A DNA stretch of 64,000 nt. Source: Prevotella sp. CAG:755 (lineage in GTDB: Bacteria > Bacteroidota > Bacteroidia > Bacteroidales > Bacteroidaceae). The notes beneath the pieces were generated by a model that was not told where the DNA came from, searched no databases, and worked only from the letters and a program-made list of their open reading frames with translations. Positions 8,536 to 16,540 of this stretch are shown here, piece by piece. The translations under genes and the position numbers were made by a program. The stretch spans positions 1,183,816 through 1,247,815 of the forward strand of contig OZ006989.1 of NCBI GenBank assembly GCA_963931215.1, read 5' to 3'. The number at the start of each line of letters is the position of its first letter. Within the stretch, counting starts at the first letter, position 1.

Positions 8536-9786
8536 TTATTTTAAGGATTCACATTTCTCTGGGTAATCTGGTATATCATTCCCATAATCCTTAGTTTGCT
8601 CACACTCATGAAAGAAGTCATCTTCACTGAAGATCCGCAAACCTTTGTATTTGCCATGCCATAGTTCGTTGAATACGGGCATCAGACCGTTTTCCCACTC
8701 CACCGCGGTTCTGGAATAACGCTCCATCGAGGCGGATGTCAGAACGGCCGAGTCATTGTAGGCGCCCAACAATTCGTCGAACGACGGACGTACAAGTTCG
8801 CGCAGTTCCTTTCGTAATTCCTTGTGCCGGGCTTTGGTCATTTTGGGGAAGGAAGATACGGCCGGAGTCTGCAGAAGTTGCGTGCGGGCTGAGTCCTTGA
8901 CCGGCACGGATGGCATCGCTGCAGCGCCTTGTTCGTCGGTCTTAGCCTGATCGGGAACTTTCTCCGGTATCGTTTGGGACGGTTCTTCTTCCTGACGGTT
9001 TTCTTTTGGGTATGTAATCAAGAAAGCGGTTACAACCAGCAAGGCGGCAGCAATGGCGTAGGCCGCTTTATGCCAGTGGGCCTTGCGGAAGGCGGCAGCC
9101 TTCAGCTCGTCCACAGTCTGGTAGCGTAAGGCCTTCTCCTCCGCCGTGCATCGTTTGGCTATCTTTCCGTACCGGGAAGCACACGGCAGCTGCTGCAATA
9201 TCTTGCCAATGGCATAGATGTCCGTGCGTTCATCCGCCTTGCCATCTTCTTCCTTCTGTTCAGGGGCCGCGTAAAAGTCCGTCCTTCCCGTCGTATCGGG
9301 AAACCCGTCCGTATAGCAGAAACCGAAATCAATGATCCGGACATCATGGCCGATGTCCGTGAGGAGGATGTTCTGCGGCTTCAGGTCGATGTGGAGCACC
9401 TGGTGGGCGTGAAGATACCCTACGACGTCGAGCAATTGTTGAAGGAAGCGGTCGGCGTTCTCCATTTTTTGAAAGTATCCGGGATGGCTCGCCAGGAACG
9501 CCTCCAGTGTCTCGCCCTCCACATATTCCATGATGATGTAGTCCTCGCCGCGCGACACGTATCTCACAAGACCGGGATGTTCGAGGGTGAAGCCAGTTTC
9601 AAACTCCTTTTGCAGGATGGCACGGTAAAGCGGATCGGAGGCGAATGCCGGCTTCAGACGCTTCATGAAATACATCTTTCCATAAAGCCTGACACGGAAT
9701 CCGTCACACGTCGAACCGTTGGCGGCCATGGGCATGGCCTCGCCCGTCAGGTCGTGGGCTGAATTGTCAAACGACGAGTTCTCCAT
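8536..9786 (-). CDS. Membrane-anchored Ser/Thr protein kinase, truncated by the IS
   Basis: YFMKRLK, HIDLKPQN, IIDFG, APE, DIYAIG, TM helix AAYAIAAALLVVTAFLITY. The residues after KDY (GNDIPDYPEKCESLK) are read from the IS end. Confidence 0.88.
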   Translation of the reverse strand: MENSSFDNSAHDLTGEAMPMAANGSTCDGFRVRLYGKMYFMKRLKPAFASDPLYRAILQKEFETGFTLEHPGLVRYVSRGEDYIIMEYVEGETLEAFLASHPGYFQKMENADRFLQQLLDVVGYLHAHQVLHIDLKPQNILLTDIGHDVRIIDFGFCYTDGFPDTTGRTDFYAAPEQKEEDGKADERTDIYAIGKILQQLPCASRYGKIAKRCTAEEKALRYQTVDELKAAAFRKAHWHKAAYAIAAALLVVTAFLITYPKENRQEEEPSQTIPEKVPDQAKTDEQGAAAMPSVPVKDSARTQLLQTPAVSSFPKMTKARHKELRKELRELVRPSFDELLGAYNDSAVLTSASMERYSRTAVEWENGLMPVFNELWHGKYKGLRIFSEDDFFHECEQTKDYGNDIPDYPEKCESLK

Positions 9787-10330
9787 CTTTCAAGATTCTC
9801 AAGGCGGTCAATCCGCCAACCTTGCCGGCCGTATATGAGCCGAGGCTTTCGCCGTCGCGCCTTACATCGCTGACATATAAGGGGTACTTGCGCATCATGT
9901 GCCAGATTTCCAGCTCGTCACCGGCGCAGAGCTTGCTGTTCACGCTTTTCTCCACCAGATACTTGTGATCGCCTATGTTGCGGATAATTAGTTCGCGGTC
10001 CGGCTTATAGGTCAGGCGCACCCGTGAACCGACAGTGACCCGATCCACAATGTCGGGCGGGTTGAAGCCCGAGCTGTACATCTTGTCTCCCATCTTGGAG
10101 AGCATGTTCCAGTTGTCATAGCCCAGATATCGGGCGATGATGTCGAGGGTGGAAACGCGCGGCTGCTCGTCCTCCAGAAGGCCGAGCAGCCGCTTCATCG
10201 TGTTCAATCCGAACGGCTGGCCTGTCTTGCCCTCGATGTCCAGCACCAAGCGCTCGACATCTGACGAGGTGCTCAAATCGCTTCCCGACTTTTTCTTTAA
10301 CTCTTCTTGAACTTGGAATGGCAGTATCAT
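9767..10330 (-). CDS. Hypothetical protein with an N-terminal HTH-like domain, coupled to the kinase
   Basis: GLNTMKRLLG..PRVSTLDIIARYLGYDNW resembles an HTH/Xre helix pattern; overlaps the kinase start. Confidence 0.65.
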   Translation of the reverse strand: MILPFQVQEELKKKSGSDLSTSSDVERLVLDIEGKTGQPFGLNTMKRLLGLLEDEQPRVSTLDIIARYLGYDNWNMLSKMGDKMYSSGFNPPDIVDRVTVGSRVRLTYKPDRELIIRNIGDHKYLVEKSVNSKLCAGDELEIWHMMRKYPLYVSDVRRDGESLGSYTAGKVGGLTALRILKDGELVV

Positions 10331-10682
10331 AGTTGATTGCTTTAGATTGGCATTATAAGAATCTCAGTTCACTTTCCGTACCCCTTAGGCTTTATGGTTG
10401 TGAACAGCGCACTGGTTCGTCCTACAAAATTATAATATTTTCTAATATCCGACCATTGTTGTCCATGCTATCCTTGTAATTTCCTTCAAATGACCTCATG
10501 CTTCCCGTAATTGCGTCGGCAAATTAGGAACTGTATTAGCGAAAAGTGTTAAATGGATGAGTTTGAGCTTGTCAAGCGCAAGGATTGATTAAATTTGCAT
10601 GGTTGGTCAATATGAACACTACAAACGACGCATGGCCTTCGTCTGGTTGATATATGACTGCACACGTAAAACAGAAAAGATT

Positions 10683-11918
10683 ATGGCTGAGATATTCTAT
10701 CATGGTTCGTCCCGTCTATTCACCAAGTTCAACCTGGATTTCGCGTTGGAAGGCACAGGAAAGGTGAAGTTCGGCTTCGGTATATATGTGACTTCCAATT
10801 TCGCATCGGCTGCCAACTATTCGAAGACACCCGATGGCGGGGCCGATGAGAGGCATTATGTATATACCCTGGAAGTGATCGGCAAGACCAAGTCGAACTA
10901 TATAAGCTATGTCGAGCCGGTCAATCCGCTGATTGTACGGAAAGCCCAAGAGAAACTTCAGGGGGAAATACCGCCTGCATATGCTGCCAACGGCAAGCTT
11001 TTCCGCAAGTACATAGGGATTAGGCTGTCCCATGCGGAAGCTGAATGGAGCAAGCTGTCCCAAGTCACTGACCCGGACAAGGCAAAGTTGCAAGTGGGCA
11101 TCGAGGAAGAGAAGGCCGCTTCCATGCTTCTCCTTCAAATTGGAGTGAAAATGATTGAATGGCCCTATTCATGGAGGGCTGGAGAGACGCGTTTCAACAG
11201 GGCCATCCTTAAGGCTGAAAACATCAGAATCCTGAAAATCGAAGAGGTAAGGCTTGACGAGAAAGGGAAATACATCGAAGGATCCAACACGCTTGTCAAG
11301 GACATGGGCACCAATCCCCATTCCCTGGCGCCGCTCATCAGAGCGCATTATCCTGAATATTGGGGAATGAAGGAATATCCGGCTGACAAGTGCGTTACCA
11401 TACACAAGCTGGACGAGGAATGGGGCATATTCTGCAATTTCGCCAGGACTCCGCTGGTGGTGCAGGGCATACGGTTCAATACAGCCGAGCATCTCTTCCA
11501 AGTCCTGAAATTCAAGGAGGCGGAATGCGTATGGGATGTCTATAACGCCCCGAACCCCAAGATGCCGGCCAAGAAACTGGAAACGCTCCACCGCCGTCCC
11601 GATTGGGGGATGATCTTCATCGACGTGATGAAGTTCTGTTTGATGACGAAATACGAACAGAGCAAGGAGTTCCGCGAAAAGTTGGACGAAACAAGTGGAA
11701 TGTATATCGTGGAGGACCAGAGCACGTTCAAGAAGCCGGCAGACGCATGGGGCGTAAAACTCGAAAGGCCGGCAGACGGCAAACTCCCTCAAAAATATCT
11801 CGGCCCCAATATTCTCGGCAGGTTGCTTATGGAACTCAGGGATCGGGGAACGCTTGAATACGCCCTTCCCGATGATATTCTGGACGGTTTGGCCTGCATA
11901 AAGGTCTCACAGCCTTAA
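10683..11918 (+). CDS. ADP-ribosyltransferase-like domain fused to a NADAR (DUF1768/YbiA) domain
   Basis: N-terminus YHGS..F..F..GKVKFGFGIYVT..A..YS (PARP-like H-Y). C-terminus FCNF..TAEHLFQ..KF..KY.Q..L..IVED..WG..GPNILGRLLMELR (NADAR). Confidence 0.78.
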   Translation: MAEIFYHGSSRLFTKFNLDFALEGTGKVKFGFGIYVTSNFASAANYSKTPDGGADERHYVYTLEVIGKTKSNYISYVEPVNPLIVRKAQEKLQGEIPPAYAANGKLFRKYIGIRLSHAEAEWSKLSQVTDPDKAKLQVGIEEEKAASMLLLQIGVKMIEWPYSWRAGETRFNRAILKAENIRILKIEEVRLDEKGKYIEGSNTLVKDMGTNPHSLAPLIRAHYPEYWGMKEYPADKCVTIHKLDEEWGIFCNFARTPLVVQGIRFNTAEHLFQVLKFKEAECVWDVYNAPNPKMPAKKLETLHRRPDWGMIFIDVMKFCLMTKYEQSKEFREKLDETSGMYIVEDQSTFKKPADAWGVKLERPADGKLPQKYLGPNILGRLLMELRDRGTLEYALPDDILDGLACIKVSQP

Positions 11919-12295
11919 GCTGCTGGACGTTTCCTCAAAGACGCCCTGAAGTTCTCCACAAGGCATGAAGTCTTTCGCAAGAGAGATCTCATGCACATAT
12001 AATATCTTTTATTTTCTGGTTAAGCTTAATTCTACGATACAAACGCACCGCTCATTTCAGTATTATGGTTGCTGCAACCGCTACTGTTGGATGCTTCATA
12101 TTATTCGTGTAATACTGAGTCTTGGGATAAATAATGACTTTTTTCTCAAGGACATCTTATTACTAAAATGACAAGGCTTCGGAGCTGTCCATTCCTTGTC
12201 TAAGATTATCCCTTTCTTGTCCGATTAACAGCTTCAAATGGAGTTTTAGCGCAAATGCTTGTGGTTTTATTATTTGTTCTAACTCTTAAGGCAAT

Positions 12296-12565
12296 TGCAT
12301 TTTTTTTCTTTCTCCTCCTGGCACCCCGCTGCGGTGGATTTCCCGATACAAAGCTACGGCGGGCAGCGGTGGCGGCAAGCGGCGCTGTGCTTGGCTGGCC
12401 GGCAAACCGCCAGTAGCCTTCCGCGATTTGTGCCAAATCGGGTATTCCGTCCGTTTCCCGTCCGCCACGCTTGCCTTGTGCCGCTTGTTCCCTCCGTGAC
12501 GCAAGTATCGTAAAACCTCCCCGGAGCGAGAAGCCGAAAGGCTTCAAACAAAAGGGAAAAAAATT
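12296..12565 (+). promoter_or_regulatory. Structured non-coding element ahead of leading-region genes (possible ssDNA promoter)
   Basis: Multiple complementary segments: T7-C / G-A7 ends, CGATAC/GTATCG, CAAGCGGC/GCCGCTTG, GTGGCGG/CCGCCAC, GATTTG-tgc-CAAATC. Confidence 0.45.
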
Positions 12566-12572
12566 CAGAACT

Positions 12573-13059
12573 ATGCACAGCAACATCATTCAAGTCAGCA
12601 ACAAGCCCATAGCAAAGGGCGAACACATCTCCATCGACAGCGTGACAGCAGGTGACATGGCATCAATAGACTATGCCTACAAAACAAGCGAGGAAAGGCG
12701 CAAGCTGGAAATCACCGACCTTGTGGGCTACATTCTGCCCAAAGGCATGTTCACAGTCAATTCCGATGGCGAGACATTGACCTACAAAGGCGGCTTCAAC
12801 GAGTGGCGCAAAAGCTACCTTGACAGCATCCGAACCAAGGCACAAGAGGTTGACGAGGGGAACATAATGCAATGGATAGGCCCGGCCTACCAGCTGCAAA
12901 AGGCCATTCTCAACCCCCGGGCACTGACACGCTTTTAGTCACTGAGTTCTATGGCGGTGGCGGTATGGCGGAACGTTCAAGGGAACTGATGACCATGATA
13001 GGCAACATGCAAGCAGGGGAACGGCTCTACATGGGGCGGTACTTGGCTATCACTTTTAA
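12573..13059 (+). pseudogene. Bacteroidales ICE hypothetical gene with two apparent single-base deletions
   Basis: ORF 12471-12938 appears to continue in the ORF 12872-13114 frame (GTDTLLVTEF...) after AACCCCCGGG (~12915). Another base in ATGGGG (~13035) would give a clean end at TAA 13057-13059. Confidence 0.5.
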
Positions 13060-13097
13060 TCCAATCGCAAACTTTCAAAACTCCAAAACTCACGGCT

Positions 13098-13334
13098 ATG
13101 GAACGCACAACTGAAAAGATACCCACATGGGCGCTTTGCCATCTCATCAACTCTGACCCGACCGGACTGACGGACGAGGACATCCGCATGATTGACGAGT
13201 GGTATGAACGGAACAAGGTCACAATCGTTTGCACCGCATCTGACCTAGAGGGAAACTGCAACCCCTACTTCACCCACTATCCGGCCTTCGGGCTTCCCAC
13301 CGATGTCATCGACTGCGATGTACTGACACGCTGA
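13098..13334 (+). CDS. Conserved Bacteroidales mobile-element hypothetical protein (78 aa)
   Basis: IPTWALCHLINSDPTGLTDEDI motif; sits in an operon with the PcfK/PcfJ-like genes. Confidence 0.7.
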   Translation: MERTTEKIPTWALCHLINSDPTGLTDEDIRMIDEWYERNKVTIVCTASDLEGNCNPYFTHYPAFGLPTDVIDCDVLTR

Positions 13335-13359
13335 ATAAACCATTTAAACAAGGATATAT

Positions 13360-13785
13360 ATGAAAGGAACTGAGCAATTCAAGGAAATTATCAAGGATTA
13401 TCTTGACAACAGGGCAAAGGAAGATGAACTCTTCCGTGCCAAGTATGAAGCTTCGACACGTACCATTGACGATGTGGTGACATTCATACTGAACGAAGTA
13501 AAGAATTCGGGCTGCTGTGGTTTCTCCGACATGGAGATATTTTCAATGGCTGTCCACGTGATAGATGAACCCGGCCTTGAAATAGGCAAGCCGCTGCAAT
13601 GCGGTGTGGTGGTCAACCGCCACATAGAGCTGACCGAGGAGGAGAAGGCCGAGCAAAGGAGGCTCGCAATACAACGCTACCAGGAGGTGGAACTCCGAAA
13701 GATAAGGGAGCGGAACGAAAGGAAGAAATCACGAAAACCGCAAGAGGACTGCCCTACGATACCCACACTCTTTGACAACTTCTGA
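13360..13785 (+). CDS. PcfK-like protein (family containing AcrIIA9)
   Basis: MKGTEQFKEIIKDYLDNRAKEDELF..CGFSDMEIFSMAVH..VVNRHIELTEEEK pattern, directly upstream of the PcfJ-like gene. Confidence 0.82.
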   Translation: MKGTEQFKEIIKDYLDNRAKEDELFRAKYEASTRTIDDVVTFILNEVKNSGCCGFSDMEIFSMAVHVIDEPGLEIGKPLQCGVVVNRHIELTEEEKAEQRRLAIQRYQEVELRKIRERNERKKSRKPQEDCPTIPTLFDNF

Positions 13786-13788
13786 GCC

Positions 13789-15006
13789 ATGAAACCGAGG
13801 ACGAAATTACAGCAAGCGGTCACAGCCTCCAACGGGAGGCTGGCTGCCATCAAGCCCAATGCTGTTAGTTGGGCAATGGGGAAAGTGGTGGGGCACTACG
13901 CTTTCTGCACTTCCAGCCACAAGTGCACGTGCGGTGACTGCGGACACAAGTTTGACATCAAGGGGAAAGGCAAGCACACCCGATGCCCCGAATGCGGACG
14001 CAGGCTGGAGGTGGTTCACACGCTGAGACGCAAGCAGCACTCATTCGCCTACTTCTCTACCATGGAGGCCGTTGACGGAATGCAGGTGCAAAGGGTGTTC
14101 CTGCTGAAAGCTGTTTACAGCAAGGGGAGCATGGCCTTGACATCGAGGAAGAGGAACATGGGGTATTACATGGACTGCTTCAACCGGTCATCGGACATTG
14201 AGCTGAGGAGCATGGCCGATGTGCATTGGGTAATATCTGACACCTACGTTTATCCGCACTATTCCACGATACCGCAACTGAGGCGCAACGGCATGAGGGG
14301 CTTCATTCCCGACTGCCACCCAATGAGGCAGGCAAGGGCGTTGCTTTCGGACTGCCGCATCGAGACCATGATGAAGGCCCGGGACTTCAAGGCGGTGGAG
14401 TATTTCGTGAGCCACATGGCCGACCTTGACATGTACTGGAACGCTTACAAGATTGCCCGGCGGCACCGCTATGCGCCCACGGACTATGGCTTGTGGTGCG
14501 ACATGGTAAGGCTGCTCGACAAGTGCGGACGTGACACCCGGAGCGTGAAGTATATCTGCCCCGAAAACCTGAAAGTGGAGCATGACAGGTGGCTCGCCAA
14601 GGTCACTGCCATGGAGGAAAGGCGCAGGGAGATGGAGAGGCTGGCGAAGGCCAAGGAACACGAAAAGGAGTTCTACGCCACGAAGTCACGCTACTTCGGG
14701 ATTGTCATCAAGGACGGTGAACTTGAAATATCCGTTCTTGATTCGATAGAGGCCTACAAGGAAGAGGGAGACCAATTGAAACATTGTGTATTCAAGTGCG
14801 AGTATTATGCAAAGGCGGACTCACTCATATTGTCGGCACACGACCGGCTGGGCAACCGCATTGAGACCGTGGAGCTGGACTTGCAGCAGGGGAAAGTGGT
14901 ACAGAGTAGGGGAATATGCAACTCCAACACCGAATACCACGACCGGATTGTCAAGCTGGTCAATGACAACGCCCACCTGTTCATCAAGGCAAAGCAAACA
15001 GCATAG
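13789..15006 (+). CDS. PcfJ-like protein
   Basis: MKPRTKLQ start, CxxC..CPEC Zn ribbon, C-terminal EGDQLKHCVF..YY..LILSA..RIETVE..QSRG. Confidence 0.88.
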   Translation: MKPRTKLQQAVTASNGRLAAIKPNAVSWAMGKVVGHYAFCTSSHKCTCGDCGHKFDIKGKGKHTRCPECGRRLEVVHTLRRKQHSFAYFSTMEAVDGMQVQRVFLLKAVYSKGSMALTSRKRNMGYYMDCFNRSSDIELRSMADVHWVISDTYVYPHYSTIPQLRRNGMRGFIPDCHPMRQARALLSDCRIETMMKARDFKAVEYFVSHMADLDMYWNAYKIARRHRYAPTDYGLWCDMVRLLDKCGRDTRSVKYICPENLKVEHDRWLAKVTAMEERRREMERLAKAKEHEKEFYATKSRYFGIVIKDGELEISVLDSIEAYKEEGDQLKHCVFKCEYYAKADSLILSAHDRLGNRIETVELDLQQGKVVQSRGICNSNTEYHDRIVKLVNDNAHLFIKAKQTA

Positions 15007-15028
15007 TTCCTGATATATATGTTCAGAG

Positions 15029-15067
15029 CACCGTCTTGCGCCGGAAGGCGCAGGGCGGTGTGTTTTT
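15029..15067 (+). terminator. Rho-independent terminator
   Basis: CACCGTCTTGCGCC-GGAA-GGCGCAGGGCGGTG followed by TGTTTTT. Confidence 0.8.
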
Positions 15068-15300
15068 AAAGAAGTCAGAGTTTTTCAAAGATTGTATCAA
15101 AAGTATAACGTAAGCCAAAATCATTCGTTAAAGCTAATTTACTTCGCACAAAATCAATTAAAATTATCTCGTACAAAACATTTTTCCTCGTCAAGCTGTA
15201 ACTGAATGGTTGTTTTTGCTGAAACAACTTGCTCCGTTTTCGTTAAGAATAGATACTCTTTCACTATGCCATGAATGTATGTTTTTAGATTGTTCAAAAT

Positions 15301-15522
15301 TTATTTTGTCTTTTCGGCAATCATTGATTTCGCTTGATTCATCACTTCAATAAACGTTGCTATGTTAGATGAGTCAAGAAATTCAGCAGAACGTGAGGTA
15401 TACCCTTTTGTGTAAATGAATGCCGTCCACTTACTTTTAGCATTAGAATAAAATGCCCCAAGTCTGAGGTTGTCTAAAGTCTTGTATTCAACTTCTGTGT
15501 AAACATCAGGAGTACTCAACAA
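15301..15522 (-). CDS. Hypothetical protein or gene fragment
   Basis: 73-aa ORF with a TTG start right after an in-frame stop, in AT-rich sequence. Confidence 0.3.
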   Translation of the reverse strand: MLSTPDVYTEVEYKTLDNLRLGAFYSNAKSKWTAFIYTKGYTSRSAEFLDSSNIATFIEVMNQAKSMIAEKTK

Positions 15523-16011
15523 CTAAAAGAAAGGAGGTAAGTAGAAACATCATAATATAGTCAACATAGCCAATCATAGCGCAACTTTACAGGCGTTCAT
15601 TACGGCTATTTGATGATAATCCTACTTTAGACCATTGCTAGTCATATCTCGCAGCTTACAAATCACGTACAAAAATACTGTAATGTACTGAATTACAGTA
15701 GGGTATTACAGAGATCCAAGCTGCGGTTGAAGAGTAATAGGGCTTTTCGAGCCAAAATTTCCGAGACTGCAAGAAAGCGCGTACAAAACACTTACAAAAG
15801 CATTCTAACTCACTGAGTGTTAGATGCAAATCAAAGTGGCGCAGGGCTGTAGAGGAACAAATGTAACCACCATAGCATTAGTAAAAACCGGCAAGCAGGC
15901 ATGTCCTATAGCTTGCCGGTTTTTCTTCTAAAAAAACGCACGATTTTTTTAATCACAGAGTATAAAATCGCCGTTTTATTCTTATGTTTGCCTCACGAAA
16001 ACATAGGAAAT

Positions 16012-16494
16012 ATGCCACGAAAGACTTTTCAATTCGATTATGACGTTTGCGACCTGAAAGACCTATCCTCTACCGAAAGAGAGTTAATTGGAACTGCAAA
16101 AAAGGCCTGCGAAACGTCCTATGCCCCGTATTCGCACTTCCACGTAGGTGCAGCTGCCCTACTCGACGACGGCACGATCTTCATGGGAAGCAATCAGGAA
16201 AACGCATCGTTCACAGTAGGCACATGCGCAGAACGATGTACAATCTACGCCGCTCACGCCCATTATCCCGCCAGTCGCATCCGGGCACTCGCCATTGCAG
16301 CAAAAAACAGTGACGGCAAGTTCCTCAAACTTCCGATCACTCCTTGCGGCGCTTGTCGACAAGCCTTGCTAGAAACCGAGCAACACCAAAAAAGTCCGAT
16401 ACTCATCCTGCTTTACGGAACGACACACATATATCGTCTGGAAAAGGCAGCAGATCTGCTTCCACTTCATTTCGACAGCGAAGCTCTCGGCTAA
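16012..16494 (+). CDS. cdd: Cytidine deaminase
   Basis: YAPYSHFHVGAA, GSNQENAS, CAER, PCGACRQ. Confidence 0.93.
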   Translation: MPRKTFQFDYDVCDLKDLSSTERELIGTAKKACETSYAPYSHFHVGAAALLDDGTIFMGSNQENASFTVGTCAERCTIYAAHAHYPASRIRALAIAAKNSDGKFLKLPITPCGACRQALLETEQHQKSPILILLYGTTHIYRLEKAADLLPLHFDSEALG

Positions 16495-16540
16495 ATGAGG
16501 CAGGACCTCTCCAACGGCTTACGACTAGGCCAGACCAATT

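Follow-up and report, generated by a model that had tools for sequence, protein, structure and literature searches.

A polyvalent-type ADP-ribosyltransferase fused to a NADAR domain in Prevotella, a minority form of a two-gene operon family of gut and rumen Bacteroidales

Reversal of base-linked ADP-ribosylation of guanosine has been shown for no hydrolase family other than the NADARs (PMC11833690), and some NADARs also reverse ADP-ribosylation of cytidine (PMC12945103). Most NADARs are free-standing (PMC11543638). In DarT1-NADAR (PMC11543638) and YarT-YbiA (PMC11125620), the NADAR serves as the antitoxin of a toxin-antitoxin (TA) pair whose toxin is an ADP-ribosyltransferase (ART), and in the literature found, ART-NADAR pairs were described only as two-gene systems with DarT1 or YarT. 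The gene analyzed here lies in a 64,000-nucleotide stretch of the chromosome of Prevotella sp. CAG:755 (contig OZ006989.1, positions 1,183,816 to 1,247,815; hereafter the window) and encodes, at 10683-11918 on the forward strand, a 411-amino-acid (aa) protein in which an ART domain and a NADAR domain are joined in one chain. The fusion is a minority form, about 10%, of a family of ART/NADAR two-gene operons. The pairing of an ART with a NADAR is known; the writer clade (ART-PolyVal, with a His-Tyr-Asn or H-Y-N triad), the host group and the repeated single-chain fusions are new. No paper was found that describes the fusion or the Bacteroidales ART/NADAR operon, the 2012 and 2015 papers of the Aravind group, which would be the likeliest to list it, lying outside the search.

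The ART-PolyVal domain was defined by a His in strand 1, a Tyr in strand 2 and an Asp in strand 5 (H-Y-D; Iyer 2017, PMC5512222). All Pfam matches of the N-terminal half of the fusion protein to ART families were sub-threshold and covered residues 4-64 only; these were ART-PolyVal (PF18760, 21.4 bits against a threshold of 31.2, profile positions 8-52 only), DUF3990 and PARP. Precomputed PF18760 matches were present on many homologues. An AlphaFold2 (AF2) model of the domain alone had a predicted local distance difference test score (pLDDT) of 90 and a predicted template modeling score (pTM) of 0.87, with strands at residues 3-9, 34-37, 58-65, 73-75, 157-161, 171-175 and 181-189 and a helical insert at about 82-152. 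A Foldseek search of the PDB with this model returned a cyanophage pre-ejectosome protein (E 3e-5), and the other PDB matches listed (50 shown) were all ARTs: RES toxins, diphtheria toxin, exotoxin A, cholix toxin, tankyrases and other PARPs. In BFVD, 65 viral proteins matched the fold at E <= 1e-3, and the top matches, named 'large polyvalent protein associated domain' and 'PolyVal ADP-ribosyltransferase', scored E 1e-12 to 1e-9 with TMq up to 0.68. A profile search with the ART domain recovered 5514 proteins among 1.84 billion representatives; the relatives were mostly stand-alone proteins of about 200 aa, and giants of 2-6 thousand residues that carry several ART copies were among the matches. 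Alignment with hhalign to the ART domains of two giant polyvalent proteins gave probabilities of 98.5% and 98.0% (E 4e-15 and 2e-13, 156-167 columns). The ART identity is settled by these predicted-structure and profile comparisons and not by Pfam sequence score. A sequence-profile search of the domain against PDB sequences was discarded: it returned acireductone dioxygenase at 5e-4, a spurious or marginal match over a short helical stretch only, and PARP12 marginally at 0.43, and a fold search was needed instead.

The original prediction, made from the sequence, had read this half as an ART akin to those of polyvalent proteins, on the strength of YHGS, FGFGIYVT and NRAIL motifs, and had placed an Asn at the third catalytic position. 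The comparisons above bear out the ART fold and the kinship with polyvalent-protein ARTs, and the motifs are real and conserved among 38 homologues. H7 falls within strand 3-9 and Y35 within strand 34-37, and strand 171-175 opens with N172; in the hhalign comparisons N172 paired with the strand-5 Asn of one polyvalent protein (P0178) and with an Asp of the other (P0218), which agrees with the predicted Asn. The same ART clade was also observed at the C-terminus of proteins with unrelated or uncharacterized N-terminal regions, namely P0122 and P0123 (about 680 aa), P0124 (Sel1 repeats followed by the ART) and P0128.

The C-terminal half matched the Pfam NADAR family (PF08719) with 69.1 bits against a cut-off of 35.1 over residues 244-388. 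Its best PDB matches in Foldseek were E. coli YbiA (2b3w; E 1e-7, TMt 0.70) and the NADAR of Phytophthora nicotianae with ADP-ribose (8bau; E 7e-5, TMt 0.62), so that fold searches of the two halves returned the ART and NADAR folds that had been predicted for them. A phmmer comparison of the fusion protein with YbiA (7e-11) aligned E269 and E344 to Glu residues of YbiA. E269, K276, E344 and W356 were invariant in an alignment of 38 fused proteins and correspond to P. nicotianae E43, K50, E125 and W133 (PMC11543638), which contact the distal ribose and phosphates (Schuller 2023, PMC11543638). Glu125, in a late beta-strand, is the residue that defines the YbiA subfamily (PMC11543638). The NADAR half is complete and, judged by these residues, looks catalytically competent. 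The nearest NCBIfam model was the DS-32 anti-phage NADAR (NF053876; E 1e-25, 90 bits against a cut-off of 240). Between the two halves lies a linker at the position of the stop/start junction that separates two genes in most relatives, and the AF2 model of the full-length protein had a pLDDT of 91 and a pTM of 0.61.

Conservation of the ART active site was assessed at two levels. Among the 38 fused proteins, H7, G8, G31, G33 and Y61 were invariant, and Y35 and N172 were at least 90% conserved. Among 85 species-level ART domains, His was present at position 7 in 81, Tyr at position 35 in 84 and Tyr at position 61 in all 85, while position 172 was Asn in 83 and Asp in two. Asp, Glu or His was read by eye at position 172 in more distant relatives. 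Two of these distant Asp-bearing relatives were flanked by erasers, one by a microbial PARG gene directly upstream and the other by an ADP-ribosylglycohydrolase (ARH) gene upstream and a NADAR gene downstream. With the site conserved across species and erasers beside two of the Asp-bearing relatives, conservation speaks for a functional and not a decayed H-Y-N site, and for an eraser that is needed since the writer writes. Both active sites were kept in the 38 fused proteins, except in a small clade with Ser172. In this clade (P0066/P0077), one member also has Cys in place of Tyr35, and the NADAR is intact; its writer site may be decaying while its eraser is maintained.

To place the fusion among its relatives, a one-genome-per-species scan was performed, which recovered 113 relatives, and the best 80 loci were classified by open reading frame (ORF) calling and blastp with each half. 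Nearly all of these loci were from Bacteroidales of guts and rumens (Prevotella, Xylanibacter, Bacteroidaceae, Alistipes and Muribaculaceae). The ART gene was followed by an adjacent NADAR gene in 57 loci, and the order was reversed in five; a PfkB kinase gene stood between ART and NADAR in six, the two domains were fused in eight, and NADAR alone was found in four, some of them at contig ends. The 57 adjacent ART-NADAR pairs had a median gap of 0 nt, with a 4-nt overlap in 17, a spacing that reads as the signature of translational coupling. Within the window's own taxonomic family, three genomes carry the two halves as separate adjacent ORFs. The claim that both domains occupy one chain stands, but the architecture is not a one-off: mostly the family consists of two-gene operons. 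In a maximum-likelihood tree of the 85 ART domains, the fused state required five changes, of which well-supported branches force at least four, and the window copy grouped with one other fused copy (L020). As reconstructed on this tree, the fusion arose at least four times independently. These results support a functional coupling of ART and NADAR, because operons occur in both orders, fusions arose at least four times independently, and both active sites are conserved in the fused proteins.

Stand-alone ARTs from the profile search were found in similar settings. P0131 is followed by a NADAR gene, P0137 by PfkB and then NADAR, and P0164 lies in an ARH-ART-NADAR operon. P0130 (830 aa) carries a helix-turn-helix, a weak NADAR, a HAD hydrolase and, at its C-terminus, an ART of the same clade, an architecture that, by its domain matches, independently joins eraser and writer in reverse order. 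P0011 (504 aa), a metagenomic protein with a phosphoribosyltransferase (PRTase) domain and a NADAR, was considered as a DS-32-like fusion and rejected; it consists of a housekeeping-type Hpt and an ART without its first ~75 residues, then a NADAR, and most likely reflects a deletion or a chimeric assembly. A protein search with the whole fusion returned 241 full-length homologues; only candidates of 0.55-1.75 times the query length were admitted, and the search therefore returned fused forms only. Given these 241 homologues and the 5514 matches of the ART-domain profile, the fusion is not a chance pattern. Copies in metagenome-assembled genomes of Lachnospiraceae, Clostridia, Candidatus Egerieisoma and Kiritimatiellae were near-identical to, or nested among, Bacteroidales copies (L089 compared with L091, and L046, L053 and L103), and reflect either binning contamination or recent horizontal transfer.

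By analogy with the described pairs, the ART/NADAR family is probably a toxin-antitoxin-like module. We give about an even chance to the more specific reading that the fusion is a one-chain form of a DarT1-NADAR- or YarT-YbiA-like writer/eraser pair acting on nucleic-acid bases. In this model, the H-Y-N ART-PolyVal domain would use NAD+ and place ADP-ribose on a nucleobase nitrogen in DNA or RNA. Guanine or cytosine would be the likeliest target base, because those are the linkages that NADARs are known to cut. The tethered YbiA-type NADAR would hydrolyze the same N-glycosidic bond, so that a potentially growth-arresting modifier would be kept in check by its own eraser, and the fused form would tie eraser to writer 1:1. 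The microbial PARG and ARH partners found at some loci hint at additional linkages. Net modification would accumulate only once the balance tips, through an invader-derived trigger or through a substrate reached by the writer alone. A self-neutralizing switch with a role in defense or counter-defense, which the original prediction had proposed, is plausible by the same analogy. In its full form, a single-chain conditional switch in which a cue or a writer-only substrate leads to growth arrest or NAD+ drain, we consider it rather unlikely.

A number of observations weigh against a base-directed writer/eraser pair. The ART carries Asn in place of the catalytic acid, and equivalent substitutions in characterized ARTs usually cripple transfer. 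A tethered active eraser, unless regulated, would amount to an always-on, NAD+-consuming futile cycle, and no trigger or regulatory element was identified. AF2 showed no confident packing between the domains (pTM 0.61 for the whole chain compared with 0.87 for the ART alone), and autoinhibition by occlusion is therefore unsupported by the model. The literature found reports no activity for any ART-PolyVal domain. The NCBIfam anti-phage NADAR model was missed widely (90 against 240 bits), and PADLOC gave only weak matches to candidate systems. The locus scan used NADAR-derived peptide patterns, which puts the frequency of the ART clade without NADAR outside its reach; in one sampled relative, P0136, on a short contig in which the downstream side could be read, no NADAR gene followed directly. 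Lastly, the PfkB, nucleoside 2-deoxyribosyltransferase-like (NDT-like), HD and metallophosphoesterase neighbors described below would suit small-molecule nucleotide chemistry at least equally well.

Recurrent neighbors were identified by clustering the flanking ORFs of 87 loci. The most frequent were a PfkB kinase and an AAA ATPase of about 570 aa (22 loci each), a WG-repeat protein (18) and a NADAR cluster outside the module (17, seven of which are the module's own NADAR in ART-PfkB-NADAR loci). These were followed by AddB-like and AddA-like proteins (11 and 6), microbial PARG and an HD domain protein (10 each), a sigma-70 factor and an NDT-like protein (8 each), a metallophosphoesterase and an SprT-like protein (7 each), ARH (6), and vWA and MoxR (6 and 5). 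In some loci the microbial PARG or ARH gene lies directly upstream of the ART gene. Neighbor order and content shuffle between loci, a pattern resembling a conflict island with an ADP-ribose theme. Such 'ADP-ribose islands' were observed around ART/NADAR in many Prevotella and Bacteroidaceae (L026-L031, L035, L042, L057, L058, L062, L081, L085 and L094); they carry PARG, ARH, a second NADAR, PfkB, NDT-like, HD, metallophosphoesterase, AAA ATPase, WG-repeat, SprT-like and sigma-70 genes and are often bounded by AddB/AddA-like genes. The window locus is without the recurrent neighbors of the 87 loci (PfkB, PARG, ARH and so on).

These neighbors bring in a different account, in which ART, NADAR, PfkB, NDT-like, HD and metallophosphoesterase proteins would make or break a low-molecular-weight ADP-ribose or nucleotide derivative rather than modify DNA or RNA, for example by degrading an ADP-ribose-based immune signal or a toxic metabolite, or in ADP-ribose salvage. 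A pathway of this kind would explain why PfkB stands between ART and NADAR in seven loci and occurs in 22 of the 87 overall, and why NDT-like, HD and metallophosphoesterase genes recur nearby. It also agrees with the activity of E. coli YbiA as an N-glycosidase of riboflavin intermediates (cited in PMC11543638) and with the argument that phage NADARs act mostly on soluble ADP-ribose derivatives (Iyer 2022, PMC9503650), and an Asn replacing the catalytic acid would matter less for some acceptors. However, the window locus has no such metabolic neighbors, the constant core consists of ART and NADAR only, the neighbors are shuffled from locus to locus as in a conflict island and unlike a fixed pathway, and the ART-NADAR pairs tested experimentally are all TA-like and act on nucleic acids. 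We regard a small-molecule pathway as a minor prospect.

The Asn at position 172 bears on a second account, in which the N-terminal half would be a catalytically inactive ART-like domain: its H-Y-N site would only hold NAD+ or an ADP-ribosylated substrate, and the domain would provide the NADAR with a sensor or a means of targeting. The only enzyme would then be the NADAR, an orphan eraser shielding host or element from foreign ADP-ribosylating toxins, such as DarT1-like defense toxins, ART effectors of type VI secretion systems or phage ARTs. The replacement of the catalytic Asp/Glu by Asn in 83 of the 85 ART domains fits this account, as do the placement of the module among other erasers (PARG, ARH and a second NADAR) and its carriage by mobile elements, and immunity functions of orphan NADARs and PARGs are documented (PMC11825919, PMC11833690). 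Against it, H7, G8, Y35, Y61 and N172 are strongly conserved at species-level divergence, which is unusual for a dead enzyme. Two members carry Asp and some distant relatives carry Asp or Glu while still being paired with erasers, which suggests that Asn and Asp are interchangeable in the active site. The writer-first order with a 4-nt overlap is a toxin-antitoxin gene order, and if the domain were a targeting module, its occurrence as a separate 200-aa protein in about 85% of loci would be surprising. An inactive ART is accordingly an improbable explanation of the family.

The genomic setting of the window copy was assessed in the whole genome (2.67 Mb, one contig). As cargo, the fusion gene sits close to one end of an integrative element of about 51 kb, which is decayed and riddled with insertion sequences (IS). 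The element extends from about 1147700 to 1199000 of the genome, begins just after a pyruvate-phosphate dikinase gene (by eye) and reaches position ~15000 of the window; these borders were set roughly, from gene content. The DUF6926, PcfK and PcfJ genes (Table 1) form its right end, and chromosomal genes (cytidine deaminase, transglycosylase and the his operon) follow from 15901 on. Sequences read by eye included a truncated coupling-protein gene followed by two integrase genes, and copies of IS1595 and IS21; no tra operon was recognized by eye within the element, which looks heavily decayed. A comparison of the right end of the element with the 90 kb upstream for att-like direct repeats yielded only matches of 13-15 nt, a chance length. 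The fusion gene had been predicted to lie next to the leading region of an integrative and conjugative element. Its location on an integrative element was confirmed, whereas a leading-region position was not established: the gene is about 3 kb from the right end, and the relaxase gene, with integrases nearby, is about 43 kb upstream.

This setting suggests a third account, in which the protein would be counter-defense cargo, a 'mini polyvalent protein' whose ART modifies a defense or housekeeping target in the recipient early after transfer and whose NADAR independently strips DarT1-type ADP-ribose from incoming DNA, the two being fused for co-expression only. In its favor, ARTs of this family are typical of the polyvalent proteins that phages and conjugative elements inject (PMC5512222), the window copy has PcfK and PcfJ as neighbors on an integrative element, and NADAR-like orphan antitoxins of phages neutralize DarTG1 (PMC11825919). 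We nevertheless consider it very unlikely: most copies form two-gene operons within what appear to be chromosomal islands, conjugation genes are absent from the recurrent neighbors, the lasting pairing in both orders suggests, together with the repeated fusions, one shared substrate and not two unrelated tasks, the leading-region position is not established, with the relaxase so distant, and no secretion or transfer signal is evident.

Fused copies elsewhere adjoin type I restriction-modification genes, transposases, DUF3987/HU-HIG mobile-element genes or AddAB-like genes. Because the surroundings of the fused copies vary in this way, the gene is taken to move as a self-contained unit. Upstream of the window copy lie a divergent gene for a 187-aa protein and an overlapping Ser/Thr protein kinase gene. 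The 187-aa protein shares 34% identity (E 1e-32) with the divergent upstream neighbor in L087, where homologues of both genes adjoin the module's NADAR and the ART ORF was not found. In L078, L093 and L096, the ART gene has homologues of both genes immediately upstream. Homologues of the 187-aa gene, which is usually divergent from the ART gene, also occur within the flanks of L040, L076 and L077, and blastp matches to the kinase were obtained in L040, L076, L078, L087, L093 and L096. The 187-aa protein and the Ser/Thr kinase may together regulate the system or act as its sensor; that the 187-aa protein itself is a regulator is a guess.

The reading frame of the fusion gene is open on the forward strand from 10599 to 11918. 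The start Met of the MxEIFYHG motif corresponds to the ATG at 10683 in all 38 aligned homologues, and 10683, which had also been the predicted start, is the likely true start of the gene on this alignment. A longer form starting at the ATG at 10599 was rejected; homologues begin at 10683, and a candidate Bacteroidetes -7 element, TAAATTTG, immediately precedes that upstream ATG. The pattern TAnnTTTG matched 54 times in the window, compared with about 23 matches expected by chance. Sigma-70 and terminator scans were at background level only, Rfam gave no match on 9500-16500, and no bacterial RNA-seq run covering the stretch was found, the matching runs being chicken and bird gut metagenome DNA and runs labeled 'organism A'. 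Downstream, about 550 bp (11919-12470) separate the fusion gene from the next plausible gene (ORF 12471-12938, with a likely start at an internal MHSNIIQ). This interval is partly G+C-rich, contains only overlapping low-complexity ORFs and is without an Rfam match.

Table 1 Features of the fusion gene and its surroundings, in window coordinates.
Feature	Position	Strand	Evidence or remark
Ser/Thr protein kinase gene	8536..9786	-	Pfam Pkinase 7e-24; overlaps the 187-aa gene
Divergent 187-aa gene	9767..10330	-	No Pfam match; recurrent ART/NADAR neighbor; own -7 motif at 10425-10432 (-)
Candidate Bacteroidetes -7 promoter element	10590..10597	+	Pattern TAnnTTTG, motif match only; 86 nt 5' of the start codon
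ART=NADAR fusion gene	10683..11918	+	411 codons, stop 11916-11918; ORF, translation, start in 38 homologues, 241 full-length homologues
ART-PolyVal-type ADP-ribosyltransferase domain, residues 1-190	10683..11252	+	AF2, Foldseek PDB and BFVD, hhalign, sub-threshold PF18760
H7-G8 codons, strand-1 His of triad	10701..10706	+	Invariant in both alignments (A1, A2); His in 81/85 ART domains
Y35 codon, strand-2 Tyr	10785..10787	+	Within GFGIYVT
N172 codon, first residue of strand 5	11196..11198	+	Catalytic Asp/Glu position
Inter-domain linker, residues ~191-215	11253..11327	+	Variable, gap-rich alignment columns; lower pLDDT
YbiA-type NADAR domain, residues 216-411	11328..11915	+	Pfam PF08719, Foldseek, phmmer, invariant residues; NCBIfam TIGR02464 and NF053876 below cut-off
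E269 codon	11487-11489	+	Invariant NADAR residue
K276 codon	11508-11510	+	Invariant NADAR residue
E344 codon	11712-11714	+	Invariant NADAR residue
W356 codon	11748-11750	+	Invariant NADAR residue
DUF6926, PcfK and PcfJ genes	13098..15006	+	Pfam; right end of integrative element, context only, outside the module

The locus points to a third ART/NADAR family, present in about 113 species-representative genomes, almost all of them animal gut and rumen Bacteroidales. The ART-PolyVal clade is abundant in phages and conjugative elements, and no biochemical characterization of it was found in the literature. The natural fusions offer a soluble, presumably self-detoxified construct that could make a first biochemical or structural study of this clade practical; in contrast, purification of YarT was prevented by its toxicity. 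The repeated fusions and permuted gene orders also provide a clean natural experiment on the coupling of writer and eraser. If the single-chain conditional switch were correct, the Bacteroidales ADP-ribose islands, with ART, two NADARs, PARG, ARH, PfkB, NDT-like, HD and AAA proteins, would be an undescribed hub of immunity or interbacterial conflict.

Of the described systems, the ART-PolyVal proteins (PF18760, PMC5512222) share the fold and sequence family of the fusion's writer, including the strand-1 His, the strand-2 Tyr and the helical insert. They were described with H-Y-D where the fusion has H-Y-N, although one giant polyvalent protein also has Asn, and the fusion is a two-domain protein of 411 aa paired with an eraser and not a giant injected protein; the 2017 paper on polyvalent proteins mentions NADAR 0 times (PMC5512222). 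DS-32, a PRTase with a NADAR (bioRxiv 10.1101/2025.01.08.631726), likewise combines a NADAR with a swapped partner enzyme and gave the best NCBIfam match of the fusion's NADAR; it differs in that this match scored 90 bits against 240, the partner is a PRTase and not an ART, and a PRTase is absent from the window locus. NARP3, considered as a link to NAD+ reconstitution, was rejected as irrelevant, being a PnuC/NadR system. CapRel(SJ46) is reportedly a single-chain toxin-antitoxin defense protein whose neutralizing domain blocks the toxin by binding. The fusion resembles it in carrying toxin and neutralizing domain in one polypeptide; the chemistry is unrelated, and the fusion's eraser would undo the product enzymatically.

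DarT1-NADAR (PMC11543638) is similar in the coupling of an ART writer to a NADAR eraser, with the writer gene first in most relatives of the fusion, and the catalytic E88 and K95 of the E. coli C7 NADAR correspond to E269 and K276. However, the fusion's writer is not a DarT (there was no DarT match in Pfam, NCBIfam or PADLOC) and instead resembles ART-PolyVal, having H-Y-N and a helical insert some 70 aa long; its NADAR has the YbiA-type Glu344 where DarT1-associated NADARs are of the Asp type (D171 in E. coli C7); and the system comprises two genes there and a single polypeptide in the window. The closest functional analogy is YarT-YbiA of myxobacteria (Cihlova 2024, PMC11125620), which likewise pairs a non-DarT ART of the H-Y-[E/D/Q] clade with an antitoxin of the YbiA subfamily of NADARs. 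Compared by its published description, YarT is minimal and without extensions, belongs to the HYD1/Rhs-toxin clade, uses a Glu (E92) and is preceded by the YbiA gene. The fusion's ART, by contrast, is of the PolyVal/HYD2 type with a helical insert and a strand-5 Asn, and its family usually places the ART first, fuses it to the NADAR in about 10% of species and is hosted by gut and rumen Bacteroidales.

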